A stretch of DNA of 62,400 nt, the filler included, from Hausera hauseri (taxonomy: Eukaryota): the NCBI GenBank assembly GCA_046269625.1. It is 12 parts of 12 records of this genome, joined end to end, with 100 filler letters (N's around TTAATTAATTAA, not from the genome) between each part and the next. Parts side by side here need not be neighbours in the genome. Positions count along the whole stretch, not along the records: positions 44,940 to 49,583 come from JBJURY010491354.1; 11 more parts are not named here. One strand, given 5' to 3'. This document shows, piece after piece, positions 8,501 to 58,249 of the stretch (position 1 is the stretch's first letter; every line of letters starts with the position of its first letter). A program made the position numbers and the translations under genes. The notes beneath the pieces were generated by a model. The model was not told the origin of the DNA. It ran no database searches and was given only the letters and a program-made list of their open reading frames with translations.

Positions 8501-8735
8501 CAAAAAAGATAAACGACGGGACAAAAAATATTCCGATGACAATCGAAGTATTTCATCATCAGAGGAAGCCAAACGACGCAAAAAGAAATCGAAGAAAAGT
8601 AAGATCAAAAAAGAAATCCGCAAGTCGAAAAGACGAAAACATTTAGATAGTGATTTATCAGATAATAGTATTGAATTGAACAGATTGCCAGTACGGAAAA
8701 AGGGTGCTTCATCGTCTGGACAGTCTACTGATTGA
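5530..8735 (+). CDS. ~1030-aa low-complexity Arg/Ser-rich (SR-related) nuclear protein, 3 exons
   Basis: Exon 1 5530-5558 (MEYDPEFPT), GT-AG intron 5559-5600 (42 nt), exon 2 5601-5665, GT-AG intron 5666-5711 (46 nt). Exon 3 from 5712 splices in frame into ORF 5744 and, across the 10-N gap at 5963-5972, into the 941-aa ORF ending 8735. RS/SP dipeptides and a Lys-rich NLS-like tail. Orthologue not recognised. Confidence 0.8.
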
Positions 8736-8737
8736 AC

Positions 8738-8743
8738 AATAAA
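8738..8743 (+). promoter_or_regulatory. putative polyadenylation signal AATAAA
   Basis: AATAAA 2 nt after the stop of the RS-rich gene, followed by a T/GT-rich tract. Confidence 0.5.
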
Positions 8744-8766
8744 TTTATTTTAAATTTGAAATAAGT

Positions 8767-8812
8767 GATGTGTGTGCGCGCTCGTGTGCGTGTCTGTGTG
8801 TGTGTGTCTGTG
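8767..8812. repeat. imperfect (TG)n microsatellite
   Basis: GATGTGTGTGCGCGCTCGTGTGCGTGTCTGTGTGTGTGTCTGTGT. Confidence 0.8.
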
Positions 8813-9381
8813 TTTAAATATTAGTTCCAATGTTGATTTCATCAAAAATAAATGTTTGAAAATTCCTTTCTCATTCAGAGTGAACATTGCTCTGGACTGA
8901 AAATGAGTGAAATTCAATATTTGATTTGATAGGTATTTCTGTATTGTCAGCTCATTTCTGCAATGGATTTTGATATTACGTCTAATATTATAAAAGAATG
9001 ATTTCGGTTTGTGCGGTTCATTTCGTTTTGTGTCAAGTATATTCGAGAAATTCTGGCAGATTGTATGACGATGGCTCGCAAAAATTTTATTAATTACATG
9101 GTTGAACAGCGTTTGTGTCATAATTTGAACACAGTTCAGTAAGTTCAATTAAAAACATATTAATCAAGAATCTGTCAGATATAAAACTTAAATGAATTGT
9201 AATAATATGGACTAAAAGGCCAGAAAAGTCTACAATTTCCATTATGAAATAAATGTTTCATTTTTCCGGACAGATATTTTTGATTTTCTGAATAATGAAT
9301 GCCTGAAAACCGTTTTGACCTAATACAGACCCTAATTTTAATTTTGTTTTCAATGTTTAATTTGGACTTTTGAAGTATTTT

Positions 9382-9481
9382 NNNNNNNNNNNNNNNNNNN
9401 NNNNNNNNNNNNNNNNNNNNNNNNNTTAATTAATTAANNNNNNNNNNNNNNNNNNNNNNNNNNNNNNNNNNNNNNNNNNNN
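9382..9481. other. artificial contig linker
   Basis: N44-TTAATTAATTAA-N44. Confidence 0.98.
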
Positions 9482-10730
9482 CTAATTTGATAACTGTGTA
9501 CTTTGTCGACTACGGAAATACGTACAGTGTACGATCTATATATACGTATGAACTACCGGAACGGCTGTTGAAGATTTCCCCGTTAGCCGTGAAATTTGCA
9601 CTCAGTGAAATCAAACTAAGCGTTGCATGTCACAACGACAACCCATGGAATAGTAAGGATCGGGATGTGTTTTTGAAATATATAAATGGATACAAATACA
9701 CCACTTGGGTGTAAAGTCTATTTGGTTGTAGATAATGTCGTCCGAGTGAGAGTGCACATGGTCGATCATAACAACCGAATACTCAATGAAGAACTCAATC
9801 ATGGGAATTGCCGAGTATGCTGAAGAAGGTTTGAGCAGTTGACAAGATAATGTGCAGCGGGTCAAGTGTAGCAATAAATGACAAATAGATTCATTTTCCG
9901 GCGAAACAGTAATGTCAAAACCGAGATTCTTAAAAAACCTGGGACTGATCGATAGCGAATCGGACATTGACATTGATGATTTGGACGATGACATTGTCAC
10001 GACAAATGAGTTCAATACACTGATGGAGTCAGTTAAACATAAACGATCTACTGAAACCGTTACGTTGCGCGCACCTCACCATCCATTCTTGATGAAATTC
10101 CACGGTGTAACAGAGTCTAGCAAACGACCCGTTAGCATTGCTCCCAATTTTGTCTGTTCTATTTTGATCGAACCAGAACCACAAATTTACTTGACTCGTT
10201 TGTTAGTAGCCGGTTGTGTCTAGTCATGTACTGCCGGTGAACAGGGTAACGACTTAATATTACGAAACTGTACTCTAATGCCATACATTCCCGGACTTCC
10301 GCTTATCATGGTCCTCATTTTTACACCATCCGCAGAACTTGTCACTGATCATCATCGCACCAGATACACCGGAGCCCGATGTGAACTCGGTGTTGACTCT
10401 GAGGGTCGACCTTTGCATCCGTCCAACGATATGGATATCCGTACTGACGTAAGATTTGACGACAGCGACAACAAAAGCATTAAGGGCATTCGTGATCTAC
10501 TGAACATGACACGCGGCAGCACAATTCATTCTCAAGACGTCATGGAGAATTATCAGTTGGGCATAAAGAAATTCTTAGCCTCTTAGTTCTTGAAGCACAA
10601 TCGAGATCTCGTCAACAATGAAATAGTCCGTGAGTACAGTCAGAGTATGGCGTTCACCGACATGGACCATTGTGCAATTACAAATAAAACGGATTTCAAC
10701 AGAATTTTTATACTGCACATTTCCATTGAT
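9482..10730 (+). pseudogene. TDRD9: TDRD9/spindle-E RNA helicase C-terminal fragment (Tudor plus C-terminal domain), intronless, disrupted
   Basis: Tudor VYFVDYGN..ELPERLLKISPLAVKFALSEIK, then LRAPHHPF..SILIEPEPQ..RLLVAG..LRNCTLMPYIPGLPLIMVLIFTPSAEL..RYTGARCELG..PSNDMDIRTDVRFD. This matches the TDRD9 signature LMPHIPGLPALLSMLFAP..YTGVLCGLG..PEHDMELAFDVQF. Several in-frame stops. Confidence 0.88.
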
Positions 10731-11399
10731 GGTGTCGCCAGGAGTATCCGATGGACTCGTTCGCCGATTTTAGGCGATCCTCGCACAGAGCGAGCAAAAG
10801 CCGACTGGATTCGGCGATTCCAGGAGGCAATGAAGGAAAATTTTAAAGATATGAACGCTCCAACTCTAAGCAGGTTCCACCGAACTATGACTTCTCGAAT
10901 GGCACGACCTGAAGAATTACCAGTCGTTGAAAATGAACAGAAACGAAGAAGGGACAACAAAGCCATTGTGGCTAGCACCATCATAAAAATCCAGGTGAAT
11001 AAAATTAATATTACTGATATTTGTTGCTGATAAAACCGTAATGCATCTGTTTTCTAAAATTGATTATGACCCGTGTGACATTGATTTATAGCATAGTCCG
11101 ACCGTGGTTGTCGGTTTGGATACATTCCACACCAAGACTGGTAAGAGATCGGTTACTCTGCAGTTTGCGACCCGCCGCGGCGAGGCTGAAGCCCCGGCCG
11201 CCCACCCTATGCCATTGGGTCAGACGGCACCCTTCGTTGCCGCCCCACGACACGCTCCCGGATAAACGACCTCTCCTCATTTCCTATTCTTTTTATTAAA
11301 TAACAAAGACATTTGCACAAATGTAGCAACACATTTAAACACGGCGGCAATCTATAACTTCATTTCCACAATTCTTTGCACACCAGACTTTTACCTCAC

Positions 11400-13932
11400 A
11401 CATTACGGCGCCACGGTAACTCTCGTTGGAAATCTGCAAGCCTCTTCCATCTATATTCACCTTTACATTCACTTTCGCATCCGTGGTGGCATGGATTCAC
11501 CACCAACTATTGATACCACGGACAAACCCACCAAACCACCGATCTCTCTCACTTACTTACCCAAACAAAGTACTTCAAACACTTCGACACAGCACACATT
11601 CCTCACTCATTCACCCTGCACAGAATATTTCCTCGATAGACAAAATTCTACCCAAACATGACTAAAACTTCATCTATTCTGGCTCTAATCACAAAACGTC
11701 GTCGACCCTTTTTCCAAAGCCAACAGCCTGTTTTTTCATTTACCTGCTTCTATCAAAACTGAAATTACAAACATCATCGACATCCTTCACTACACCGATC
11801 CATATGCTCAACTTTATAATGCCGTTCTTAAGCTCACTTAGCCGTCAATCGACTCTATCATTCAAAGGTTCTTCAATGTCAACGCCACGGGCCTTCAGAA
11901 GCCTTCTGAATTCTTGCCCACATCCTTGTCTCACCTCAATACCCTTGGCGTAACATCTGAGCATAGTCCAGATCTTCTTCATCGTTACTTCCTAAACGCA
12001 TTGCCCCTTCAAATAAGAGCTTTGCTCACTGTTGTCGAAGACTTCACGGCACTGGAAAAGTTAGCTGAACTGGCGGACAAAGTCTATGAAGTGCTGCACT
12101 CACACACAATACCAACTGTATCTGCGGCATTAACAACAAACCACCAGCAATAAAATGTAATGCTGCAGCAACAAATTGCGCAATTACGCACAGGCAATGA
12201 AATGTTGCAAAAGACAATTAATAACATAAACGAGATATTAAATGATTTAACGCTGCCTCGACGAGGTTTTTCTAGGGCTGCCTCCCCTAATGTATTTCAT
12301 CAACGACAAAGACGGTCGCCTTCGTCCGCGCGGTCGTCTATTTGCTACTGTCACAACAAATTTGGTAACAACGCGCAGAAATGCTGCATTGGTTGTAAAT
12401 TTTACTCCCCCTCTTTTAATACAAGCAACATCGTTTGCATCTATCACTCAAAATTTGGAACAAAAGCACAAAAATGCCTACCTGGCTGTAACTACAACAC
12501 GCTCAATAAAATCAACACCATTAAACCCACAAAAGTCAGTAAGCCAACCTCACCAGCTACAAAAAACTGATTTCGCCGCTAGGACACACGGCAAGGTCTA
12601 GCAAAAAGATAGTCGACACATTTCCTTTGCTGTATTCACGTTGGAAGCAGCAGTTGTCACTCCAACAAAGCAAAACATGAACTTTCTTACAGACACCGGC
12701 GCAGCAATCTTTCTACTACCACCAACACAGCACATCCAAAACAATTTCACTTCAAAAAAGCAACTTTTTGCTGCATCCAGCGAACCTTTACAAACTTTTA
12801 GCGTTACCAAATTAACTTTTACACTTTCAAATTTCCCAAACACATTCACTTGAAAATTTACAGTAGCCAATATACGCACACCTATATTGGGTTCAGACTT
12901 TCTGTCCCACTATAATTTACTTGTAGACTGCAAATGATGTTCCTTAAAGAGCGGAAATAATTTTAATCAAATTAGCAGCATTTCGGTGACCACCTGAGCG
13001 ATCGCTTCCAACAAGTCAATACTAAAAAACGACTTCCGATTTAAATTATTTTTATAATCATTTATTATATAGAAATTTTTATTACGGCAACAAATACGAT
13101 ATTATCAACTGCGTGGCACCTATTACTGATAGTACAGCAGCCAACACCATTTTCAACACAAACATACTGCACCTAAAGCCACCTAGTCACAACACCTTGT
13201 CTACAACTCATACCTTAATTGCATCCATTCACGATGCATTGACACCATCTGAAAACTTCTCATCGTTGACCTCTGACTGACAGCAATATATTTCGTCTTC
13301 CTGCACGTGTCTGTTACAAAGGACAAATCATTAGTACCACATCAATGCACCTTCCATCACATAGTAACATCACATCAAAGACCAATACGTCAAAAGGTCC
13401 GCCCACTATCGCCTCGCCGCAGACAGGCAGTGGAGGCAGAGTTTCTCGAACTGGAATAATCAGGAATAATCAGAAGATCCAAATCCCCGTGGCCTTTATC
13501 ACTGCATGTGGTTCCAAAAAGATGGTACCTTTCGCCCATGCGGTGATTACCTCCAACTCAACATCATAACAACAATGGATGCCTACCCTCTACCATTAAT
13601 CAATGATATCCTTCACAAGCTCCATGGTTCGACCATCTTTGCCTGCATTGATTTACACAAAGCATACCAACAAATTCCGGTGGCCCCAGCAGACATTTCG
13701 AAAACGGCTGTCATTACACCTTTCAGTCTTTTCGAATACCTTTTCATGCCTTCTGGACTCCATAGCGCTTCCCAGACCTTCGAAATGAGTATCGATACAG
13801 TCCTCTCAGATTTAGGCTTTGTAAATCCCTATATCGATGGTATCCTAATTGCATCATCTTTGTCGAAACAGCACTCCGAGCACTTACGTTTAATCATCCA
13901 GCGCTTGCACCAAAACAACTTGCAAATTAATT
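11400..13932 (+). mobile_element. Gypsy/Ty3 LTR retrotransposon (CsRN1/Kabuki-like), gag-PR-RT, decayed, truncated by contig end
   Basis: Gag QKPSEFL..LHRYFLNALPLQIRALL..LAELADKVYE; two C-x-H-x-KFG-x-A-x-KC knuckles; protease FLTDTGAA and PILGSDFLSHYNLLVD; RT KDGTFRPCGDY..DAYPLP..IDLHKAYQQIPV..YIDGILI. 5' boundary approximate. Confidence 0.9.
12561..12602 (+). promoter_or_regulatory. -1 programmed ribosomal frameshift signal (A AAA AAC plus stem/pseudoknot) at gag end
   Basis: Slippery heptamer in the gag frame directly before TGA, 7-nt spacer, then GCCG/CGGC and GCTAG/CTAGC pairings conserved in the second copy at 61148-61189. Confidence 0.7.
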
Positions 13933-22835: not shown

Positions 22836-24010
22836 TTATACAATGACTGTTCCGTTTTTCGTTATTTCCACCTCGGCATCAAATACACCGTAGATGTACA
22901 TCATGGTAGATTGCTCCAACGCTTTAGCAAAGTGAATCTCCAATCGTAGGTTTCCCTGCTGAGGTAGTTTGGTCTGTTCATCGTCATAGTCCTGAGCCAG
23001 AACAAAGGTAAAGAATGGATGGGTGGACTTGAATAAATCCATCGATATGCCATTGTTAACATTTTTGTTCAGCAAACCCATGTTATGCACGATAGATTGC
23101 ATATATGTGCAAACATAATCGCCGGTCTCGAAATCTTGCTTGTACATCTCAACGAAATCCACATTCTTACCCAAATTGATGTAATTCATATTGTTATGGG
23201 TAAACGTTTTCGAATCGGTGGTATAGCAGCCCGTTTGTTGAGCAGTCGATTAAAATGTAACGAGCACAAATTTCGGCAATCGCATGTCGCCAAACAGTGC
23301 GTCCTTGTAAAACTTTGTCGAACCTTTGGGTATGGTGTAAAAGACGAGTTCTGTGCGTTGTAATGGGTAACAGGCATTTTGTGTTTCCAAGCCCAATCGA
23401 TATCCCATGAGCACAGATGGTTCTACCTTTACACGTCGTACGTACAATTGTGCCTCGGTAATTTTCAGTATGGGTTTGAGACCTGCAACGGCGGTTTTCA
23501 AACAAAAGACATTGTCGCTGCGTTTGAGTCGAATCATGGTTTTAATACCGGGCAGTAGGTATTTCGGCTGATCGAAAAAGTCAAAGTACAGCGGTCCGCA
23601 AATTGTAAGTGCTTTTAATTCTGCCACCCATGCCTGACGGTTTGCGGCTGTGGCATCGTATCCGATGGTTTCGTCAAATTAGTTTTTTTCTTGTCTGCGC
23701 TGTAATTCAGAGCCGTTTCAGTCAGTGCTTTGACACTGTATAGACTGTTGTTGCCTTTGAATTTGACGCTGTTTAGAGTCAGTGAAGCTTCGTGGAACAG
23801 TGTGTAGAAAATGTAATTGGTTGGTGTGACATTGTCTGTTGCAACAAGAATCGCTGACGAATCCTTTTTAACAATGACTTTTGCATAGAGTAGCCCATCG
23901 TTCAAATCCAGGTATTCGTTGTCCGATACCATAATGTTAAATTGAATGTCAATGTTATCGTCCGTTGAAACCAAATCAACAGGGTAGATTTCTTTAAATG
24001 CCGCATTGTC
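22836..24010 (-). pseudogene. double jelly-roll major capsid protein (hexon-like) of Polinton/adintovirus
   Basis: EIYPV..IQFNI..EYLDL..LYAKVIV; GPLYFDFFDQPKYLLPGIKTMIRLKRSDNVFCL..ITEAQLYVRRVK; LPKFVLVTF..NPFHF-like; GNLRLEIHFAKAL..MYIYGVFDAEVEIT. Split over ORFs 23615-23974, 23250-23627 and 22836-23189. Confidence 0.88.
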
Positions 24011-24365
24011 AATAAATTCGTATGACGATGACGTTTGTTTATAGTTGAAAAGCTAGTTGATCTACAATGTTTCCTAAAACCACTACCAGCGAATTGTTCT
24101 TTGACTGATTCAACGACTCCTGGTGCAGCGGCGCTTTTACTTCGGACAAGGAGTGTTCCTTCAGTGATGGTAAAATCTGTCTGTTTTCATTTAGTACGTC
24201 CTGTGCTGCTTTTGCTGCCACGGCTCCAATATGCTTCAACACCGGAAATGCTAAACGCGCCAATGTACGCAACCATCCAGAGCCATACTGTTTACCAATG
24301 ACATACGGCAGTTAACCGCCCTGCTGCGGTTTATTGTAAATGGAAAGGATTTTAGAAACAATCAT
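24010..24365 (-). pseudogene. small basic/amphipathic virion core protein precursor
   Basis: MIVSKILSIYNKPQQGG*LPYVIGKQYGSGWLRTLARLAFPVLKHIGAVAAKAAQDVL.. then, frameshifted, EQFAGSGFRKH..KRHRH. GG/GxG motifs, amphipathic helix and basic tail; ATG overlaps the penton stop. Confidence 0.7.
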
Positions 24366-27644: not shown

Positions 27645-30597
27645 ATGGATCTAAATATAAACAATAATTTTATACTAGACAATGATTGCTATGAAACAAC
27701 TGTGATTGACGATTTTTCTTTTAAATTACAGATTAAACAGTACATATGATAAACCGCTTGGCTACCTTAATATAATTCACATGAACGAACATACGTAGTT
27801 TAAGACATAATTTTGATGAATTTCTATACCACATTGGTAATAGTAAAGTAAAATTTCAAATTATAGTTTTAACTGAAAGTTGGATTACGGATGAATCAGA
27901 GTTTAATTTCTCAATAGATGGATACAAGGGTGTAAATAAAAGTAGTAAATACACAAAAAGTGATGGATTATGCATTTTTATACATAACACTGTCGACTTT
28001 GAAATTGTAGAGATCAGCATTGAAAACAGTAATGCCATCTGTATAAACTGTAAATATAGAAACAAAAGCTTTAGAGTAATAGGATTGTATCGGTCACCTT
28101 CCTTAAATATAAATACTTTTATAACAAGTCTAGACTCCATTTTACAAACAATGAAAAACGTACATAACATTATAACTATTGGGGATTTAAATCTATTTAT
28201 AACAGATAATAACAATTTAATCAATGAGTATCTCTGTACAATGCATATAAACGGATTCAAATCATATATAAACAAACCAACAAGGATAAATAATGCAAGT
28301 GCAAGCTGTATAGACCACATATTTTTAAAAAATAAAGATTTTAATAATAGCAATATAATAGGAACAATTATTAAAACAAATATTACAGACCACCATTGTG
28401 TTTCTCTCCAAATAAATATGAACTGTCAAGATTATAAGGAAAATACAATAACCAAAACGCGTAAAAAATTAAATTGGGAAAAACTAAAAGTAAATCTTGG
28501 TAAAGAAACCTGGAGTGACATAGTTTCTGATAATATTGATACTTTTGTAGATAAGTTTGTAAACAAGTTAAATGATTACATAACTAAAGAAACTAGAATT
28601 ATTAATGTACCGCGTAATAAACAACCAATAAAAAAATGGATCACCCCAGGCTTAATAAATTCCATTAGAGTAAGAGACAATATGCATAAGAGAGTTACAC
28701 AAGAGCCATCAAATATTGCCCTAAAAGAAAAATATAAAAAATACAGGAACAAATTAAATCAGTTAATAAAGGCCACAAAAATAAAGTACTACGAGTGCAA
28801 GCTGGATGAATCTAAGGGAAATTCCAAAAAGACATGGGATTGTATAGCGGAAATGTTAGACTCTAAAAAAATAAACAACAGAGCTGATATCGACCCAGGG
28901 ATATTAAACTCATATTTCGTTCAGGTAGGTGAAAACCACGCAAAAAATTAATCAATGATATTAATAAAATCACAATGCCAGAATCACTGCAATCTTCCCC
29001 GTTACAAAGTATTTTTCTAAACCCAACAAACGAAAAAGAAGTAATACAAACAATAAATTCTTTAAAAAATAATATGTCACCAGGCATAGATGATATCAGT
29101 GGGTACTGTGTTAAAGAAATAGGGAATTTTATTGCCAAACCATTAGTAAAAATAATAAATGAATGTTTCAGGAAAGGATACTTCCCACAAAAATTTAAAG
29201 TGGCTAAAATTACAGCAATTCATAAGTCCGGCGATCTAAGTAACCCGGAAAACTACCGTCCCATAAGCCTTCTAAGTAACTTCGCAAAAATAATAGAAAA
29301 AATCATTAAAAAAAGATTGCTAGCTTACCTAAAGCAAATTACTTTTTTTGAAAATAACCAGTATGGTTTTCAAGAAGGTAAATCAACAAGTGATGCTGTA
29401 TTGCGATTGATAGAAATAGTAAATAAAAACTTTAATACAAATCGTAAAACCTTATCAGTATTTCTGGATTTGTCAAAGGCTTTCGACACAATTCCTCATT
29501 CAGTATTGCTTCATAAATTGGAGAGAGCTGGAATAAGAGGTGTGAGCAACCAATTAATTAGGAGTTATCTTGAAGACAGACTTCAAATACTAATAGCAAA
29601 TGGAAAGTCTGATTCAAGAGAGCTATCAGGCTTTGGACTACCCCAAGGTACTGTACTTTCTCCAATACTCTTCCTAATTTATGTTAACGATCTGATGAAA
29701 TTGGATATTCGTAACTGTGAGGTTTTGTCGTTTGCTGATGATACGGCTCTGATATTCACTGACGAGTCTTGGGAAGAAGTGTTTAAATGTGCTAACAGAG
29801 GATTAATAAAGGCCAAGTCATGGTTTGATAAACATATTTTAACTTTGAACTCTAAAAAAACAAAATTTATATGCTTCTCACCAAATGATAAAGGCCAACC
29901 GCCATTAACCTTAAAATTACAGATGCATACCCATAACTATGGAGAAAGAAACAATACTAACTGCAACTGCAGTAATATAGAAAAGGTCAAAGTATTTAAA
30001 TATTTAGGAATACTAGTGGATCATCATATAAAATGGGATATGCATATAAATTACTTATGTTCTAGATTAAAGTACCTTATATATAAATTTTATAAAATAA
30101 ACGAAATAAAACATTTAAATATAATAAGGATAATTTATTTTGCATACGCTCAGTCTCTTTTCCAGTATGGAATTGAGATATGGGGTGGTGCTTTCGACAC
30201 ACATTTTAATAAGTTATTTGTCCTCCAAAAACATTTAATTAGAGCAGCTCTGGGTAGGCCTAGATTATATCCTAGTAGACTACTCTTTCAGGAGCTTAAT
30301 GTACCAACACTACGACAGACTTACTTACAGAAAACTATTTTCCATATAAATAAAAATAATCAAATATTTACAATTCGAAATACACCATACAACACCCGAG
30401 TACATAGCACCAACACATACAATGTAGCCTTTACAAGACTGACTATAAGTAGACGTCAGTTTACTCATTTGAGTGCACTGTTAATTAATAAAATTCCTCT
30501 TTATTTTATAAGCAATAAACTAACAAAAACTCTAAGAAATAATATAAAACAATGGGTTAAAAATGAAATATACTTTAAGATACTTTTTTTAAATTAA
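27645..30597 (+). mobile_element. non-LTR retrotransposon ORF2 (APE endonuclease + RT), CR1/L2-group, nearly intact
   Basis: APE: HMN(I)RSL, VLTESW, GLYRSP, IGDLN, CIDHIF, TDHH. RT: NYRPISLL, NQYGFQ, FLDLSKAFDTI, GLPQGTVLSPILFLIYVNDL, FADDT, KYLGILVD. ORFs 28085-28951 and 28975-30597 are separated by a 1-nt shift in an A run (~28945); a GAAC duplication near 27785 also shifts the frame. Confidence 0.95.
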
Positions 30598-40229: not shown

Positions 40230-41654
40230 GTCTATTGGAATTAGTTACATTGCAATGTTGCTTGAAACCAATCTGATCCGCTAAATTCCTCTTTGGAATG
40301 TTGGAATCACCAATCTGATGATGATGATGATCACAATCTTTGACAAAATCTTCCACAAATAGCATTTGAAGTAGATTGTCATCCACCAGTTTGCGATAGA
40401 TGCGGAAAATCTGGCCAAATATCGTGTCCATGTCACCAACAACCTGCATCGTATGTCGTAGATAAGGTTCTCGTGCCTCCAATTCTCCTCAGCACGCCGG
40501 AGTATCTCTTCGGGCGAACAATATCGTGCGTCATGTAAAGGTCGATCAAAATTGTAAAGGTAACTCCGGAGACCGTCGAACGAGCTATATAAACGAATGA
40601 GTTCTGTTAAATGGAATACGTCGTAATGTTACACCGTAAAAAAGCGCATGTATTTATACTGAAATGTAACAAATAAATTATATTGATTCACGAAAACAAA
40701 CATAGCAAAATAATATATATTTGTGATTAGATACGGTCAATCAACTTTTTCATTACAATACAAAGCGAAGCAGAAAATACAGGTCCAATGAGGAAATTAA
40801 TCCGCTGTCGTTGTCGTTTTCGTCTCATTTCATCCTCGATACGTTTTACGAAGAGCTATCTGACTTGCAATTCAATATACTCTCGCCTGCTCATTATTCT
40901 CGTTTCTGTGAGCTCAAAAACTGTACATCAAACACATATCCAGTCAAAATGTAATCGGTCAATCTTTGAATTTCACTTTCAAAATACTCTTCCATTTGAT
41001 TTAGTGTAGTAATGTTGATAATCGTTTATAGCCGATTTAGGCGACGTCTGAGACTGCAGTAAGGGGAATAAGTTATGGTGTACTGTAGTTAAATTTATTT
41101 ATTTATAATTAATACATTTTTATTTATTTTTAGTTCAATTTGTTTATTATTCAGAAATGTTCGCAATATCCCATGTATTGCGTCTACCGCATACATGAGG
41201 GTGGACAATGCCACAAAGAAATGCCCAAATATTATTCAGTGGCCAAGGACACGTACCTGTGTCCCGTATGTTTTATTTAAAACACATGCCCGTACGCAAA
41301 CTTTTATAAGATGCACAAGCATCATCTCGGTCCATTCACGCGGTGCAAGATGATGGTTGTGCATTGCACCACATACCCACGTTACTGTACCAATACAGTA
41401 CATGACGTTGGTGGTTGCCATAGTGAAATGGGGCAATACTATGACACCACAACGGTGCACAGTAAACGGGCCTATGTATATCCCGGTTGTTCTATAGCAG
41501 ATGATGAAATCAGCTATGACCAATTTTATAATCAGCACCATGACCACTTAAACCAGTTTAAGCGGTCGAAAAAACAAATATTAATGGTGGCAGCAAAAAG
41601 CAGCTGCCCTTAACAAGTAGGAAACATCAGGCATCAACAAACCTTGACGAATAC

Positions 41655-44600
41655 TTGCAAAACAACAGAAATCAAAAACAGAAGGAGCAGCAGCAGCAGG
41701 AACAGGAGCAACAGGGGGAGGAACCACGAATTACTGTCATGTACGATCTGAAAAAATCGTGCGTGGATATAAAAGTGAACATATCAGCGACAATAACAAT
41801 AACAACAACAACGCAATTGAGACTTGTTCCATCTACTGTGCGAAACTGGTTGAAATCTAAAGCGGACAAATTCCAACACCACCGCAACTGCAAAGTGCAG
41901 TATTATGCACTTGCAGAATTCGAAAACGTGCAAGGCAACAGGAAACAATGGTACCTGTCACATCGAGCTGTACCATATATCGAGGATTTTATCGCTGAGA
42001 TTGGCGAAAAATTCGAGGAGAAAATCACCAACTACATGGAAAAAGGTAGTGGATGGCGAATTGTAAAGATTGTCGCTCTCAACTTTATCATTACAAAGTT
42101 GAGTGACATGATTTACTTGTCGGGGAGATCATTCATACCGACACCTGCAGCCTAAAGCACTCTAAAACTGTAGTCAATGTAGAAAATAATAGGGACGAAT
42201 ACTATTTTCTTTACAGTATTTTAACCACATTAAAATATGATGAAGTCCCCAGAAATCGTGCAAATCGTTCAAAACAATATCGTCAGTATTTTTCTGAATT
42301 GGACTTTAATGAAAGCTGGATGCCGATAGAACTAAAAACCGTGCCGGCTTTTGAACGGCGTAATCCGACACTGGCAATCAACGTTTTCCGGTACAACTCA
42401 GCAACAGAGATACCCGCAGATGAGGATATTTACAAAAATCCTTATGGGGATATAATCTAACAAAGTCGGAACCCGAATGGACGTCCAATATACCTGTTGC
42501 TGTTGGATCAGACAGAAAATTTTCATTACGTGGCCGTAACAAATCTGGACAGACTGCTGAACATGGACAATGACCAGTTCATCCAAAAACAAATACGCTG
42601 CAAATGGTGCCCCATATGTTTGCATGGCTAAAATCAGAAGCGACATGGGAAAAACAAGTGGCGCTATGCAGATAAAACGTATCGGGAACAACAATGTACG
42701 CAATGCCCGTCAAAACGGAGCTGAGATTCAGTGACCGTTTAAAAACGGACAGTCCGGCATATATGATCTATGCCGATATTGAAGCAATTCTGTCGAGGCA
42801 CAACGTATACGACCAAAAGCACATTCCAATCGCCGTCGGTTTGTTACTAGTACCAATAAAAGCTATGGGACAACCGCAGTATTACTTTTCCACGGATGGA
42901 ACTGTGTACGTGATTTCCTGCACCAGTTGGAGGCAATAGTGGAAGCGGAAATCTCACCGTAGTACAGCAACAAGAGCACTAAGCCTTTGATCTGGACAGA
43001 CGAAGACGCACACCTTACGTTTGCAGTCACAGATAAATGCTACCTGTGCCACAAAATATTACCATTCCATAAACAGGAACGGCTCGTACCTGATTACGAC
43101 TACTTTACCGGATGATACCTAGGAGCAGCATGCAATTCATGCAATTTAGCATGGCGTGTGCGGTCATTCCTGCCCGTGATATTTCCTAACTTGAGGAATT
43201 ATGATTGTCACCATATTCTGAAATGGGCCATTAATGGATTTCCACACTGGGAACTGTCCATAATCCCAACAACTATGGAGAAATACCTGTCTATATCTGC
43301 ACGCATAAGCCGGTTCCACGTGCAATTCCTTGACTCATTACAGATCCTCAATGAGTTTCTAGCAAAGCTGGTAATTCCCTTGAGGTATGTGCCGTTAACA
43401 TCAACGCAGTTTCCGATGCACATTGCACGTAGCAAAGGAATATTCCACTATGACTTTGCTGCATCATTTGATTACATACTCCAGTATCTGAAAGTGGACG
43501 TGTATTTGCTGACCGACGTGTTTCAGACATTTCGGACTAAGGCGTTGGCGGAAGATAGACTGGAGCCGCTCAACTTTTACTCCATATCGGGAATGAGTTG
43601 GGCGTCGGCATTGATATCACTGGACCGGGACATTGAGCTATTGCAAGACCCGGAAATGTACCGATTGTTTGATGTCGGTATTCGTGGCGGAATGACATTT
43701 GTCAACAAGCACCACGTAACCAATGACGATAACACCACATCACTGCAGTACATTGACATTAATAACCTGTACAGCTGGGCGCTTTCGAAACCCTTGCCGT
43801 ACGGTTCATTTGAATGGTTAACGGACAAGCAAGATCTGGAGGCAATATTGGGAAATTTACCGACAGCAGACACGGCAGAAAACAGCTCATTCGGCTACCT
43901 GATGGAAGTTGATCTCGTGGTACTGGATGAGTTGCATGACGCTTTGGACCAATTGCCTGTCACACCAATCAGCCAATGTCCGCTCGGCGGCTCAAAGGTA
44001 AAGAAACTCCTCATGACGCATGAACCGAAGATGAATTACGTGGTCCATTGGCGTTTGCTACAGTTCTACATGCAGCTCGGTGTACGCGTCACACAGCTGC
44101 ATCGCGCAATCAAATTCAATCAGGCGCCGGTATTCAAGGCATACATTGACGAAAATTCAGAAAAACGAGCCGCAGCTTGTACAAAGTTAGAAAAGGATTA
44201 CAATAAGTTGAAGAATAATTCTCTCTAAGTCAAAACAACAGAGAACCTCAAAAAGCGACTCAATGTGCGCCTATGTAACAACGAAAAGCGGCTGGTTAAG
44301 TACACCAGCAAGGATCAGTTCAGGCGGTCAATGAACATTGCCGATGGATTGATCGCCGTGATGTTAAACAGGGAAGAAGTCGTACTGGACCGGCCAAGCT
44401 ATATAGGACAAGTGGTATGGCACCTGCGCAAGTTACGAATGTACGAGCTCCAGTATCGCGACTTGGCACGTTACCGGCAAATGTTCCACGGCTGTGAGAT
44501 CAGTATTGTTGCCAGCGACACAGGCAGCTTTTTTCTTGAGCTGAAAAACGTCAATCGCGACCAACTGCTCCGGCAAATAATGTCAGATGGACTACTGGAC

Positions 44601-44839
44601 ACGTCCAATTACCCGCAGAATCATAGTAACGCCATCACGAACAAAATCGGCTGCTTCAAGGATGAAAGCGAAGGCCGTGTTCAGTACGATAATAAATATT
44701 CCTGCGCTCAAAGTGCTACAGTCTCCTTACGGTCTGTGGACCGAAAATGCGCGCAAAATGCGTTCAGCTGTCCCAGACGGAAATAAGCCACGGTGATTAT
44801 CGCCGTATCTATGAAGCAGCAGCAGCAGAAGACGGAGGA
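41655..44839 (+). pseudogene. protein-primed family B DNA polymerase of a Polinton/adintovirus, decayed
   Basis: EKGSGW..GRSFIPTP, LAINVF, IYADIEAIL (Exo I), FPNLRNYDCH (Exo II), FLDSLQ, KGIFHYD, YLKVDVYLLTDVFQTFR, GIRGG, YIDINNLYSWALSKPLP (motif A), KLKNNSL* (motif B), SDTGSF (motif C), IGCFKDE. Confidence 0.93.
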
Positions 44840-44939: not shown

Positions 44940-45167
44940 TAACATTTCTCTTCCCTGAACGGCATCCTCGGAGGTGCCAATTGCGTCATGAGAGGTGCTG
45001 TCAGTTTTGTGTTGTCTTAATAGGTTTATTCGTCTTCGTAAACTAATATCGGTGGTCGTATTTTTATGGTCGGGTCTGATTTCTATTTCATAACTATGGT
45101 GAGTCTTTATACGGACCACCATTGTGTAACCTCCGTTGGAGAAGTACTTCAAGTTGGCGGCTTCAGC

Positions 45168-45302
45168 TCGACATATTGGACAAGTGGTCTAACCATTTTC
45201 TAGAGTCCACTTCTCTAGACATTCTCGGCAGTATCTGTTTCTGCAGTCTTTGTTGTCCAAGACGACAAATCCTTGTTGGAGGCTAGCCTCGCAGACCGGG
45301 CA
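45168..45302 (-). pseudogene. RING finger domain (not in the ORF track because of an internal stop)
   Basis: CPVCEASLQQGFVVLDNKDCRNRYCRECLEKWTLENG*TTCPICR: seven Cys ligands plus the conserved W and CP.CR; His position is Asn. Confidence 0.85.
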
Positions 45303-46245
45303 CTTGTTTTCTTCTTTTTCCCACTTCGTCATCCAGGTCCACTCTGATCGTAAGTTCAATTTGTTCAAAAATTAATCCTTATTCGTTTTGATATATGTAT
45401 CCATGAATTCGTTTCTGCTTAGGGTCCACAGAACTTGGTCTTGGGTCACTACTTATTCTACCAATGTTTAGACGTCCATCGTCTCATGGTCTAAGTCAGG
45501 AACTCGGTTAGCTGTCCGGTATTTTTGATATTGTTTCTTTAGTAGGAGTTTTAATTGTTCGTCTACTTGCACTGTCAATTTTCCAGTCCTCTTCGATTGA
45601 AAAATCGGTGCAACATATTTTCCTAATTTGGAATTTTCCAATATATAGGTTTTCTCATATACTTCTTTTTGTGGTGACTGTGATGTAAAAGGCTGCTTCC
45701 TTGATTTTCCCATGGCTATAATGTTCGGTTATTACTAGCATTTGGGCAAATCTTCTACAGTGGCAACGTGTTGATTTCCAGGTAGGTCTCTATTCCTAAG
45801 AACATTTATTTCTGTATACCGTTTAGTTCTTCTTGTGTTTCTTTGTTTCTGAACCATGATTTCTTCCGGTCTCTGTTCGATTGGTAGGGGATTTTCGTTC
45901 TTCTGCGTTACTTCGATCGTCGTTTTTGTATTGTCGATTTCACGCGTTCTTTTAAATGTACGGTCATACAATGAAGTCTTTTTTTGGTATTTTGTGGTAA
46001 TATATCGATTTTCGGTTTCTTTTCTGGAACTTGGGAATTTTGAAGACCGATTTGTCATCCTTATTCTCATCTAATAGTGGTATGGAGGCTTCTTGACTTA
46101 TATTGGTTATTTGGCTATCGTCAGTTTTGAACATTTCATTAATTTTATTTGGTTGATATTGTTTCCGTTATCTCACGTAAATTTGATATGGATTTGCATA
46201 ACTGACCAAGTTATACTCAAGTTTTGGAGGAACCCATTCATGTTC

Positions 46246-46779
46246 CTACGATAATCCGGCATAAGTATCTCTTAGGTACTGAGTACGTTGACTCGCGGTC
46301 AACAATTTACTAATTTTAGCTAGACTATTAGTTCTAGCTTCTACCATTATTTTAAAGTAATCATCCATGATCCTTGGCATGGGATAGTCTCTTTCTCGTA
46401 ACAGTTTTTTTGTTCGTTTGGCGATAAGTGGGCGTGTATTAATTTCTCTTACTCCTGCGATTCCTGATTGCGGATTCTCCAATAACAATATTGCTTCTTT
46501 CACACGGTATCCAATAAGGATACATCCATATAGACAATGGGCCAATTCATTCTGTACAACTTTTATGTCTTTTCCTTCCTTCAAGTTTTCCTTACGGATT
46601 CCTGTTTGATCGTAAAAGGTTTCTGTGACCCGTTTTCTTGGACTAATAATCGTATGATACGATTCTATTCGATTTGTCTCCCTGATTGAAACTTCCATCG
46701 GAATTTTGTCTGCCTGGTTACCTTCGCAACAGCTTATGACGTGTGGCACTAATTTGTTGGAATATAAGGAGTTTGCCAT
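46246..46779 (-). pseudogene. REXO4/ISG20-like DEDDh exonuclease domain, catalytic acids substituted
   Basis: CCEG..VSI..YHTIISPRKRVTETFYDQTGIRKENLKEGKDIKVVQNELAHCLYGCILIGY aligns by eye with REXO4 DCEM..VSI..YDKYVKPTEPVTDYRTAVSGIRPENLKQGEELEVVQKEVAEMLKGRILVGH. Confidence 0.8.
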
Positions 46780-47596
46780 CTCCGATTATAACAGTCTATG
46801 CCGAAATTTTAGAGGTGGTAAGGAGGGGTTGTTCCGTTCATCTTTTGTCACTTCAATCATTATTTTAACAGCGAGTGCAGTGACTCGGAATTCTATATCC
46901 TTTTCCTGCAGTGTTTCACTCTGTAATTTGAGGGTACTAAACTTGTATTGTTTCCNNNNNNNNNNTACTCTTGGGCCTCTAATCGGTAGTAGATTTCACC
47001 GTGGGCTAGGTGGCTATATAGGTCCCTGCCAATTTCATTACTCACTAACTGTCTAAGTGAGTAGGCCCTAGCGTCTCTGTTTTCTCTCATAGCATACTTG
47101 TATACAACTCTGGCTTCTTCGGTGGTCCCAATTAAGTTATTCGGTGTAGTGTTGACCTGGTCGTATTTTATGGCGGCCTTTCCGTGTATTTCATTGTATC
47201 TCCCGACAGATAGAATGGGAATTCATAATGAGTATGGTAGCATGAATCTGTAGGAATTCGTCGATACTACATCGACATGTTGAATTGTTTTCTTTCTCTC
47301 GTTCGTCGATTCTACGTCGTCCAGACATCTTGTGGTTCTTGATTCTGAGAAATAAACAATAAGCATTATTCTTAAAATAAAGATCTTTTCTAAAATAAAA
47401 CCAATTCTTTATCCAATGACAGAATAACCTGCTCTGTAATTGTCAGATTATTTTATCATACGGATCAATTTTGTTTCCCAATTCCCTTAGTTCCAACTCT
47501 GTAATTTTAGGACGCTTTTATTAACAATTTTTGGCACATAATCGAAAAATCGCAGTTTTGAGTGGTAGTTTTATCGTCTATATTTTCGTATATATT

Positions 47597-48770
47597 CTAT
47601 TCTGCGTGAACCTTGTCTAGGGTACGCAATGTGATTGTTTTGTTTTGCTTATTCTTCGCATATACTTGTACTATGTAATCAAATAGTGGTTTTAACAAAT
47701 TTTGCTCTGTCTGATAAGTTTTTTTAAATAGTGTCACGATTTGGTTATTATACATGGTTCGGTAGCTTATATAGATATAATAATTTAGCTTCTCCTCCAC
47801 AAAGAACACGATTCTAAATCGATGTATCGAAAACTTGATGGGGATTCTCTCTAATTCGCTTTTATGTGTACTGCTTGATGTAACGGTTCTTGTGAGTCTA
47901 CTAATCCGAGTAGTCGGTCTTTTAGTCGTCATTGTTACTGAAATTTTCCATATTCTATTCTCGGGATAGTAAGTTTGTAACTGTATACTTTCTTTGTTAG
48001 GTCGCACTTCATATAAGTCAAATTTTATTTTAAATTCTCGGTTTACTGGCAATATACAACAAGTGTGTTGCATGCCGGCACGAATGAAATAATATTCTAA
48101 TTTCGGAGTTCATCCGTTTACCGCTTCGAAAACAATACTGATTTCCTTGCTAACGTTTAATCCTGATCGAGAATCTACTTGGATACATTGTTTTTCGATA
48201 TTTATCGAGATTCCCTTTATATTTTCGTCTAAAACCTTATTCCTGTATTAGTGGATTGTAACATTTCTATGGGTTTGCCTGTGAAACGTTCCGACCAAGT
48301 GGTAATAACCAACTGGTGTTGTGGGTTTACTTCGATATAGACCTCTGCTGAGTCGGGTAAGTATAATTGATAGGTAAGAATGTAAACATGTTCAAATTCT
48401 ACATCGCAACACTGAGTATAATCACCGTTTCAAAATCTCAATCCTTCATTATTCTTGTCACTACATCGTATAGGACAATTTGAAATCTTCCAAAGTCGTG
48501 GTGTGGTCTCCAAGTTTTAAATCGAACACACGTGGAGTCCGGCGAAAAGTAGTTAACCGTCATCGATTGTAATAATCTAGTGTCTTCTTGTTTCTGTATT
48601 TCTTCGGCTGTCGGTTTCTTTTCCGCTATAGTAATTTTTACCTTTAATCCGCTTTTCCGTATTCCGTATACGTTCTCTAACGTAGATTCATCGTCCCACC
48701 ATTGGGTTTGTATTCTCGGAATATAAGAAGCAATTATCGATAATGCTAAAATTATCTGAACGTATGATAT
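47597..48770 (-). pseudogene. signal/TM segment plus three beta-rich, fibronectin-III-like modules with an S/T-rich linker
   Basis: ISYVQIILALSIIASYIP; two modules with C..CC spacing (CVRFK..CCDVEF and CIQVD..CCILPV); TMTTKRPTT..TVTSSST; LKPLFDYIVQVYAKN (FN3 L.P..Y.V.V.A.N motif). Confidence 0.5.
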
Positions 48771-48849
48771 CGGTCTATTAATTATTGATGAAGTTTTTAT
48801 CTCACGTTGGCGTAAATTATAACGTTTGTAGGGTCGTATTTCCGTCTTA

Positions 48850-49583
48850 ACGACTCTTTGTACAGAGACGACTTCTGTCCTGTTTTTGTTAATATACACT
48901 GTAGTTGGTGTAATTCTAGTAATTTCGTACGGTCCTCTGCCTGTACGAGTTAGTTTTAATGATGTGCCTTTCTTGGTTACCGGATAATGTACATAAACCC
49001 AATTTCCACGTTCTAAATCATGTGGTTTTGCTCTCTTATCATATTGCATTTTAAATTGTTCTTGATACTCCCGGGACAATTCCTTGGCGACTTCCCAACA
49101 TTTATGTAGCCATGTCTGTAATACGTCTGCAAAATTTCCTCTAAATCTTCGGGGCAGACTCTGTACGGTGTCATTCCTAAATTTGTGTGTAACACAGCTT
49201 CTCATCCATACATCATGAAAAATGGTGTAAATGCTGTTGCTGGATGTGGTGTGGTATTAAATCTTTTTGGGCCTTAGCCACTACAGTTGATAGTATGTGT
49301 ATGACAGTTGCATTTATTCATTTAACCATTCCATTGCACTGAGGATGGTACGCAATAGTGGTCGACCGTTCGATTTCAAATATTTTGCTGATCTTCTCAA
49401 AAAGTTCACTTGTAAAATTTCCTCCTCTATCTGTTAGTATCTGGTCTGGCGGTCCATACCGGCAGATTATTCTTACTACGGCGTCGGCCAATGTTTCTGC
49501 CTTCTGGTCAATTAACGCTATCAATTCGACAAAATGAGTTAGTCTGTCAATACAAGTTAAGATATATTTATTATTCCGGTATG
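48850..49583 (-). pseudogene. retroviral-type (rve) integrase with GPY/F C-terminal module
   Basis: NKYILTCIDRLTHFVE..RYGPPDQILTDRGGNFTSELF..AYHPQCNGMVK*IN..FTPFFMMYG..MQYDKRAK..GNWVYV..KLTRTGRGPYEI. Confidence 0.93.
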
Positions 49584-55464: not shown

Positions 55465-58249
55465 ATGAGAGGAAGCTCCTATATAAAGCTTTCTGAATGG
55501 ATTGAGCATACAGCAGCATACATCAATGTGAAAAATAAAGACAGCATGTGCTTCAAGTACGCGATTCTCTCAAAATATATAAAGGATCAAAAACAAGCTT
55601 CTCGAGTTTTAGTATATCAGAACATGAAGCATAATTACAATTTCGGTTGTATTAAATTCCCACCAGAAATAGATGACATCAAAAGATTTGAACGAGTTGA
55701 TCGGATGTCCATCAATATCTTCGGTGTGGATGAAACAGATAAATTCTATCCTTACATGTATGCAAAGAGGAATTGGAGGACCATAAGGATCGGCTGATGT
55801 TAGATGATTGTGAAAAGAGGCATTTCATCTGGATCAAGAACTTTATTAGTCTCATCAGATCCAAAGTAACAAAAAGGGATATAGAATTGTAATTTGTAAA
55901 AGATGTTTGTCACATTTCGGTGGTGAATCTGCTGTGGAGAAGTTAAAGGAGCATAAACTTTATTCTAACAGCAATTATTGTATAAGAACTGAATTTCCTA
56001 AGGAGAACTAAATAGAATTCACAGAGGTTGAAAAACAGCAGAAAGTGCCCATTGTTGTATATTGCGACTTTGAGGCTATTCTTAGGCCAGTACAGAGCTG
56101 CAATCCGAATTTACAACAAAGTAACACGACAGCATACCAAAATCATGAACTGTCATCATATTGCACGTATGCAAAACGAATGGACAAGGAGCCATATTTA
56201 TATAGGGTCCAGATGCAGCAGAATATTTCATGAAAAGATTGAAAGACATAGCCCACAAGGTTGAAGTAATGCTTCAGCAGCATAAAGATGGTATGCTTAT
56301 ATCACAGGAAGAAGAATGTGAATGGAGAAAGGCAACAATCTGCTACTTGTGTGAAAATCATTCACAAAGGGCAATTACAAGGTACATGATCACTACCATT
56401 TTACCGGCAAATATCGAGGCACGGTATGCAACAATTGCAAACTGCGTTGCAAAAGGATGACATGTACACATAATATTCCATAATTTCAGTGGGTACAACA
56501 GCTACTTCATAGTGAGAGAGCTTGGGAACATTGATGACAATATTGAAATGATCCCTAATAGTGAGGAAAAATAAATCACTTTTACAAAGCACGTGGGTAA
56601 AATCAGTCTCCGATTCGTAGATAGTTTGCGGTTCATGAATTTGTCTCTTGACTGCCTCGTCAAGAACCTTCCGGCAGACAAACTAAATGAAACTAAGAAA
56701 CACTTTCTAAACATATTTGAACTAGTCAACAGAAAAGGTGTGTTTCCCTATGACTATATAAATTCATGGGAAACACTGGGTGAGACCTTATTACTGGACA
56801 AAGAAGGCAACCATATCAACGATAAGGACTACCAGCATGCCCGGAATGACTGGCATATATTCCAATGCAGGACAATTGAGGAATACATCGATATGTACCT
56901 CAAGGCAGGCGTGCTGCTGCTGACGGATGCCTTTGAGAGCTTCAGGTAAGTTACGATGAAGATCCACGCATTGGATCCGACTCATTTCTTTACAGATCCA
57001 GGGATGAGTTGGGTAGAAATGCTGAGATATATCGGAATTAGGCTGCTCGTACATCACCTACTTGTATGAAAACAACTTGTATGGATGGGCAATAAGCACT
57101 TCATTGTCACATGATGACTTCAAATAGATTGAGCACCCCAAAGGCATCCCTATACTAGACCTAGATTCCAGTGGGGACACAGTCTACATACTGGAGGTGG
57201 ATGTTGAATATCCACATACCATCCACACAAGTCATCAGCAGCTGTCTTTCCTTCCAGAAAGCAAAAGGCCACCGAAATTGGGAATTCAAAAAGTTACTAT
57301 GCCATCTTGAAAATCGGTAAAAATATGTAGTCCATTACATAAATATAAAACAGGATATCGGAAATGAACTCCACATCACGAACATCCATCGGGCTTTGCA
57401 GTTCAGCCAGTCCATGTGGTTGCAGCCATACATCGACTTTAAAACAAAGTTGAGGGCCGAGGCTGAAAACGACTTTGAAAAGGACCAGTTCAAGCTGTAC
57501 AACAACAGAGTTTTGGCAAGACCATGGGGAATATCCGCAACACGATTAACATCGAGTTGGTGTCTGAGTGGAAGCGAGCAAAGAAGTTCATTGCCAAGAC
57601 CAACTTCCATAGCAGCACCATATATGCAAAGAACTTGGTCGCCATCCATATACTGAAAACATCCTTGATATTAAGTAAGCCCATATATGTGAGTATGTCC
57701 ATTTTGGACTTATCAAAGACCTTGATGTACAAATACCACTATGACACCATGGTCTCCAAGTTCAAGGTTCTGCAGCTAATGTACATGGATACTGATAGTT
57801 TCATCTATCAGATCCATGAGGAGGACATTTGTGAAGACTTTGCTCAATTAGCTCAGCGCATGGATACGTCTGACTATCCAAAAGAGCATTACAAATATTA
57901 AATCAACAGCAAGAAAGTCCTTGGGAAATTCAAATACGAGGTGATTGGGGCAGTCATCTCGCGATTTATGGCTCTTAGGTCCAAAATGTATGCCCTTGAT
58001 GCATGTAAAGGAGGGGGTTAAAGGGGCTTAAAGGGTTACCTTGGCCAAGAATATCAGCTTCGATGCCATGTGAGAGTTCTGCAGGAGCAGACTCATATCA
58101 TATCAGAGATGCGAAGGATCCAGTCTACGGCTCTTGAGATACAAACAGTAACGTTGCAGAAGAAGAGCCTAGATTGGTCGAATGACAAGAGACAGATCAT
58201 AGAAGATGGAATCCGCACACTGCCTCATGGACATGTTGCATTATTGTAA
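55465..58249 (+). pseudogene. second protein-primed family B DNA polymerase of a Polinton/adintovirus, decayed
   Basis: RGSSYIKL..INVKNKDSMCFKYAIL, SINIFG, VYCDFEAIL, FHNFSGYNS, RFVDSLRFM, RKGVFPYDY, NNLYGWA, FEKDQFKLYNN, KPIYVSMSILDLSK, YMDTDSFIY, LGKFKYE, LRSKMY, DKRQIIEDGIRTLPHGH*. Confidence 0.93.

Follow-up and report, generated by a model that had tools for sequence, protein, structure and literature searches.

Accessory genes of animal long terminal repeat (LTR) retrotransposons mostly encode env fusogens, and the means by which these elements counter host silencing are largely open. Other cargo is known singly in LTR elements: exonuclease open reading frames (ORFs) in Juno and Vesta, RING cargo in Burro and a captured host domain in CopiaMBD (PMC6673714). 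Here we describe positions 44940-49583 of a 62,400-nucleotide (nt) window, the whole stretch analysed, from Hausera hauseri (GenBank assembly GCA_046269625.1). The window consists of joined short contigs, and these positions are a single contig of about 4.6 kb (record JBJURY010491354.1) between assembly linkers (N-TTAATTAATTAA-N). Of the readings considered we lean, with modest confidence, towards a decayed copy (3' half) of a Gypsy-type LTR element, the last gene of which would be separate and spliced and would encode an RNA-binding ubiquitin ligase acting against host defences. Judged by titles and the openings of abstracts, no paper found reports a pseudo-DEDDh domain paired with a RING finger in a retroelement, while Repbase, subscription journals and supplements (including that of PMC13524379) could contain it.

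Comparisons with described systems draw on the available parts of each cited paper. Juno and Vesta, LTR elements of bdelloid rotifers, are likewise Gypsy-type and carry an exonuclease-fold gene after pol (PMC5408684). Their ORF3 is RNase D-like (DEDDy) with an intact catalytic DEED, and the word 'RING' is absent from the paper, whereas the domain in the Hausera contig is DEDDh-like, catalytically stripped, fused to a RING and downstream of a second cargo region. The giant planarian Gypsy elements Burro/GYPSM1 resemble it in their captured RING or ubiquitin-related cargo and in-frame env, but place this cargo upstream of pol in a ~4,900-amino-acid (aa) ORF (AIR1, MATH, BIR, BCL2 and an F-type env), with no DEDD domain named in the portion available (PMC6431247). 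Errantiviruses with F-type or gB-type env also have, behind the integrase, an additional region led by a signal (PMC13524379); the contig element differs in having no F/gB family match and no C-terminal anchor, and the main text of that paper, as available, does not contain the words 'RING', 'exonuclease' or 'fibronectin'. Ginger1 DNA transposons share a Gypsy-like integrase with the GPY/F motif, which characterises Gypsy and Ginger1, together with C-terminal extra domains and GT-AG introns, but have terminal inverted repeats (TIRs) of 40-270 bp with TGTNR ends, OTU, Ulp1 or PHD cargo and no polypurine tract (PMC2836005).

Outside retroelements, arenaviruses combine a DEDDh fold and a RING in one parasite, but as two separate proteins, the exonuclease of NP, which is active, and the RING of Z (PMC7412275). 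A RING and a dead DEDDh fold occur in one chain in PML-I, where the RING (RBCC) is joined to a pseudo-exonuclease, PXL, and the combination binds RNA and drives proteasomal degradation (PMC13659232, PMC10123124). PML-I differs in being a vertebrate host restriction factor, TREX1-like and with the RING first, and PML was not among the 40 PDB matches; the parallel would be a functional analogy only, from the opposite side of the conflict.

The central evidence for a conserved gene at this locus comes from related proteins. A phmmer search over 1.84 billion protein representatives gave three matches: P0010 (870 aa, E = 4e-42), which is stop-free and derives from a 16.2-kb contig, P0011 (333 aa, E = 1e-14), from a 12.4-kb contig and 53% identical to P0010, and P0012, an ordinary REXO4-like repeat protein. 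P0010 is collinear with the Hausera contig from 47265 to the last codon at ~35% identity overall. Identity follows the domains: it is 64% in the RING, at most 55% within the core of the DEDDh domain and undetectable in the linker, the pattern that long purifying selection on the domains would leave. A preliminary description of the contig had asked whether its 10-N gap (46956-46965) could be a mis-join. The contig is collinear with two relatives across the gap, where 7 P0010 residues stand opposite 17 nt; therefore the gap, which appears slightly undersized, is no mis-join and the DEDDh-RING tract is a real conserved gene. In the contig, the homology-guided path through this gene of ~800 codons (N-terminal domain, pseudo-DEDDh, linker, pre-RING domain and RING, in that order) meets 7 stops and, the N-gap aside, shifts frame about six times. 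The single frame previously read from ~46000 to the contig end did not hold, as P0010 homology shifts frame near 45680, 45457 and 45320.

Further relatives were sought widely. None was found among the viral contigs or prokaryote genomes scanned, or by alignment among metagenome contigs. Five metagenome loci matching the RING motif were set aside as unrelated RINGs (23-38% identity, no other domain match), with one 26-residue piece among them at 58% identity. Word-index protein searches, which are weak negatives, returned longer proteins only for the DEDDh and GPY/hydrophobic pieces and only P0010 itself for P0010 residues 40-470.

The RING finger proposed in the preliminary description is confirmed by its zf-RING_2 match. 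The contig copy is damaged (the His ligand is missing and there is an internal stop), and in P0010 all eight C3HC4 zinc ligands are present (E = 2.6e-7, above the cut-off); the RING is likely to be active as an E3. The exonuclease-like domain was likewise upheld, by matches that are weak singly and concordant together and so point to DEDDh homology: RNase_T at E = 0.0089 (below the curated cut-off), a three-sequence family profile against DnaQ 8h18 at E = 1.2e-4, a PHROG exonuclease family at E = 1.1e-4, and Atlas leads of 0.86-0.88, among which arenavirus NP ranks fourth with 0.86 and counts as no more than a lead. A DEDDh profile, built from P0012, which is itself a match, scored 34.4 bits, and the best of 300 shuffles reached 5.5.

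Catalytic positions of ISG20 (PMC9157404) were mapped via ISG20L2 and P0012. None of the D/E/D/H/D positions is kept in P0010, in which ExoI reads N-T-G, ExoII has Met and ExoIII lacks both the His and the Asp; in P0011, ExoI reads N-L-A, non-acidic, and the sequence stops before ExoII and ExoIII. By these residues the nuclease is likely inactive. Arenavirus NP requires all five catalytic residues (PMC7412275), and because they are missing even in stop-free P0010, the arenavirus-like RNA degradation suggested earlier, by an active ISG20-like nuclease, is unlikely. P0012 itself (804 aa, a singleton cluster) carries REXO4/ISG20-like DEDDh domains in a tandem array of four, and the ExoI acids are absent from three of these or more.

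What had been called a charged linker proved to be so in part: a charged, poorly conserved stretch is present, and the rest of the region under that label holds a conserved domain of ~140 aa before the RING. This pre-RING domain had no usable Atlas match. A further degenerate DEDDh was also considered, and rejected, both for it and for the N-terminal domain (scores within those of shuffles, hhalign probability at most 0.2).

Because both relatives start at about the place of the best splice acceptor (47345), the second gene is quite likely to be separate from the integrase, and the single integrase-to-RING fusion previously described is disfavoured. P0010 and P0011 begin 57 and 68 residues, respectively, ahead of their first shared conserved motif, and their leading peptides are Phe-rich, which is what a pyrimidine tract would encode. 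The acceptor-like site lies ~26 codons ahead of the first conserved motif and precedes an in-frame ATG (47328). Paired with a weak donor-like site at 47428, the 47345 acceptor would close an 84-nt in-frame intron, and a spliced fusion by this route is possible. From the surface-like region to the RING, the homologous frame showed no membrane segment, and a fused RING would therefore be lumenal; the hydrophobic start of P0004, considered as a transmembrane anchor, is in the wrong frame by homology.

Upstream, the Pfam rve match and the GPY motif bear out the Gypsy-type integrase of the preliminary description. A DDE integrase with a GPY/F module is present, degenerate in this copy: its third catalytic position has no acidic residue, a stop follows directly and the frame changes downstream. 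The helical/GPY region had no Pfam match. The GPY module and the hydrophobic segment share an ORF as described, but the segment is marginal as a membrane anchor (Kyte-Doolittle 1.63).

At the other end of the contig, a purine tract is followed by TGTTA, which reads in LTR orientation and would be the first 5 nt, all that lie within the contig, of a putative 3' LTR. Of the 10 purine runs of at least 10 nt in the contig, the terminal one alone is directly followed by TG. In Gypsy elements a gene's last codons may overlap the polypurine tract and LTR start. Such an overlap would be expected to conserve the terminal codons, and 10 of the last 13 residues are identical between P0010 and the contig, versus 3 of the 32 just before. 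The Ginger-type alternative left open earlier is accordingly weakened, with the purine tract, TGTTA and matching last codons of P0010 favouring an LTR; by this terminal anatomy the element is likely to be an LTR retrotransposon.

The preliminary description also reported an intronless coding-like tract on one strand. Throughout, the contig reads as decayed coding sequence of the minus strand. In the sense direction its order is the integrase, the GPY module, the hydrophobic segment, an unassigned fold spanning ~440 codons, the T-rich acceptor-like site, the second gene, the purine tract and TGTTA (Table 1). Stops and frameshifts are scarcer than in 200 dinucleotide shuffles in 7 of 7 tested regions, with none of the 200 shuffles as open as the real sequence in five regions (two of them overlapping), one in another and 7 in the linker. 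The coding-like continuation therefore stands, and 'intronless' is doubtful at 47345-47407, where the best splice-acceptor-like site lies. The A content of the sense strand is even (35-43%) and the level of decay alike throughout. Differences from other copies fall at all codon positions (40 listed of 884), and 7 of 44 scored rows were synonymous, at least 2 rows having been read in a frame that later proved wrong; the pattern fits, weakly, neutral decay of the contig copy.

Table 1. Features of the 44940-49583 contig, in sense order (window coordinates)
Feature	Position	Strand	Basis
Gypsy-type integrase catalytic core, truncated by contig start	49252..49581	-	Pfam rve E 2.6e-13; retroviral integrase alignment
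Integrase helical region and GPY module, two frames	48822..49267	-	ORF reading; GPY at 48927-48935
Hydrophobic segment in GPY frame, candidate internal signal peptide or signal anchor	48711..48788	-	Kyte-Doolittle 19-mer maximum 1.63
Decayed coding region, putative surface or secreted protein	47393..48710	-	0/200 shuffles as stop-poor; beta-rich blocks
Very-high-depth bin	47420..47574	no strand	Summed contig depth 11361 vs 446 and 659 in flanking bins
T-rich tract and splice-acceptor-like site	47345..47407	-	Ranked first among 142 YAG sites; 60-mer richest in T (52%)
N-terminal domain of second gene, without family match	46777..47265	-	P0010 58-225; spans 10-N gap collinearly
DEDDh/DnaQ-like (REXO4/ISG20-type) domain without catalytic residues	46234..46740	-	RNase_T, DnaQ, PHROG, Atlas, profile test
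Charged linker, poorly conserved	45745..46105	-	No tile collinear with P0010
Conserved ~140-aa pre-RING domain, several frames	45325..45744	-	P0010 604-742; 34-56% identity by tile
RING finger	45171..45302	-	zf-RING_2 E 7.5e-7; 64% identity to P0010
Purine tract and TGTTA, candidate polypurine tract and 3' LTR start, overlapping the gene's last codons	44940..44956	-	12-nt run

The element belongs to a large multi-copy family, as previously suggested, and its cargo is real by the collinearity of P0010. In one sequencing run, 4291 contigs match the Hausera contig at 80% likeness and cover 30 of 30 bins; 69 are at least 99% identical, 366 are 95-99%, 1500 are 90-95% and 2356 are below 90%, so that 3856 of the 4291 are less than 95% identical. 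Divergent contigs cover 47582-48049 and 48304-48802. Two of them (records 7 and 8, ~83-85% identical) together join the GPY module, hydrophobic segment and first module; other integrase copies, which the preliminary description had considered might lack the cargo, therefore also carry that part of it. Summed contig depth is 6-388 over the DEDDh-RING tract, apart from the last bin of the contig, where it is high, versus 6856-12570 over the integrase end; divergence past the 80% threshold and loss in many copies could both account for this. No bridge was found over 47345-47490 among the divergent contigs listed, or over 47420-47488 among the identical contigs listed.

Within this family, the very-high-depth bin includes one site present in 80 contigs and lies just upstream of the acceptor-like tract; it is possibly a conserved cis element common to non-autonomous derivatives. 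Over 48200-49530, many divergent contigs jump 70-530 nt, which suggests internally deleted or variable copies.

The region in env position (~1.3 kb) consists of beta-rich blocks with Cys pairs and a Thr/Ser-rich stretch. It had been called an FN3-like ectodomain, a likeness judged by eye from a motif near 47650-47700, and one that was not borne out: no fn3 match was found in Pfam (E≤1, or E≤10 per module) or PDB sequences. The region had no family match in Pfam, PDB sequences or PHROG, a search in which a single decayed sequence limits sensitivity. It contains no internal repeats, and the proposal that the three beta-rich modules repeat one another was dropped (best E 0.2). No F-type or gB-type fusogen was matched in Pfam, PDB or PHROG, and the region has no second hydrophobic segment or C-terminal anchor; because of this, our guess is that it might serve in attachment or secretion.

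For the element as a whole we infer an LTR type, a spliced subgenomic RNA, and an accessory protein with RNA binding, E3 activity and a host-defence target. Genomic RNA would give a Pol with a signal-led extension in env position, a surface or secreted protein, and a spliced subgenomic RNA would give a cytosolic accessory protein. The dead nuclease fold of this protein might grip RNA or the element's ribonucleoprotein (RNP), and its RING could recruit an E2, so that a restriction or silencing factor of the host would be ubiquitinated on arriving there. That counter-defence is the purpose of the gene is a tentative suggestion, to which we give slightly less than even weight. The fullest form of the proposal is doubtful: a group of large Gypsy elements of animals, not described before, in which a non-fusogen, Pol-fused surface protein has taken the place of the env fusogen and a spliced dead-DEDDh RNA-binding E3 gene directed at host silencing has been added. 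If true, this would be the retrotransposon equivalent of the degrader proteins of viruses, mirroring the PML of the host. The conserved pseudo-nuclease and RING gene makes a tangible candidate for an E3 ligase encoded by an element, with P0010 as a natural sequence, and also contains two conserved domains without known family.

Several observations weigh against a defence-directed gene in a Gypsy-type LTR element. Relatives of the second gene number just two (P0010 and P0011) among the 1.84 billion representatives, and both are known as proteins alone, with gene-caller starts and with integrase link, acceptor and LTR unseen. Reverse transcriptase (RT), gag and the full LTR lie beyond the contig, which opens inside the integrase. 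The ectodomain-like region is linked to the second gene in one assembled copy, across the very-high-depth block, and the copy counts come from one run, probably of the source sample. The ExoI register is uncertain, with an acidic residue one position off in each relative. The two single-sequence AlphaFold models are poor (predicted local distance difference test, pLDDT, 30.9 and 29.5), and the second of these, for the region in env position, is unusable.

The same element and gene could instead encode a protein that serves the element's own life cycle, with RNA chaperoning or packaging by the dead fold and a RING acting in assembly, budding or protein turnover. To our knowledge most Gypsy elements replicate without such an accessory gene, and the fast divergence of the second gene outside its domain cores is typical of host conflict, but non-specific. 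A life-cycle role fits the sequence evidence equally well and has parallels in the arenavirus Z RING, which acts in assembly and budding (PMC7412275), and in the auxiliary replication roles proposed for rotifer DEDDy ORFs (PMC5408684); we regard it as unlikely. Somewhat less likely again is a single polyprotein from integrase through RING, continuous or with a short intron, in which the nuclease degrades RNA like arenavirus NP. Coding-like sequence does reach the T-rich tract, the weak donor at 47428 would keep the frame, arenavirus NP is an Atlas lead, and Burro elements combine RING and env domains in a single ORF (PMC6431247). Such a polyprotein is opposed by the starts of both relatives at the acceptor-like place rather than upstream, by the lumenal position its RING would take, and by the loss, in stop-free P0010, of residues all five of which arenavirus NP needs.

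A DEDDh-RING gene or element of other origin might have been joined to the integrase/surface part at the high-depth block near 47420-47488, through nesting, recombination or an assembly error. This reading is favoured by the interval 47345-47490, unbridged among the divergent contigs listed, and by the drop in depth over the second gene, and P0010 is known as a protein alone. Strand, composition and decay are, however, the same on both sides, no boundary like a target-site duplication or TIR was found, and an integrase at one end with a polypurine tract and TG at the other makes a coherent element. The N-gap is collinear with P0010, and other copies below 80% likeness would lower the depth as well. 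We consider a chimera improbable; one element with conserved cargo is, in our assessment, strongly favoured. A Ginger1-type DNA transposon with unusual C-terminal cargo and an intron is very improbable. It would accommodate the GPY/F module, extra C-terminal domains and GT-AG introns (PMC2836005), and no RT lies within the contig, but at its right end a Ginger would have an inverted repeat beyond the ORF, whereas the purine tract and TGTTA in the sense direction read as a 3' LTR start. No TIR, long inverted repeat or long repeat pair was found within the contig, and none of the known Ginger1 cargo (OTU, Ulp1, PHD) was matched in profile searches of the contig and P0010.

Searches across the window gave no second copy of the element, and a scan of Rfam gave no match at E≤0.1. 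None of 10 window ORFs looked up in a protein collection was present, and no RNA run was listed as containing the stretch. Other contigs in the window carry pieces of diverse origin, and the mariner-like, LINE-like and type B polymerase repeats among them point to an invertebrate animal as the likely host. A remnant of a protein-primed type B DNA polymerase, Polinton-like, lies at 41562-44786 (+; DNA_pol_B_2, E = 1.3e-16) on a separate, unlinked contig, and 57479-57901 resembles a type B polymerase remnant by eye, with no Pfam match. Three overlapping ORF pieces at 22836-24052 (-), without a Pfam match at E≤0.001, look by eye like a capsid-type gene, frameshifted, from a large DNA element. An open frame of 942 codons rich in Arg, Ser, Lys and Asp (5907-8735, +; no Pfam match) is likely a large host exon. 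An LTR-type RT piece at 13470-13931 (+) and a mariner-like transposase piece at 2713-3291 (-) lie on other contigs, with no link of either to the integrase/RING element shown. Finally, 27785-30597 (+) holds a LINE-like ORF2 that is long and, with one break, nearly intact (RVT_1, E = 8.9e-39).

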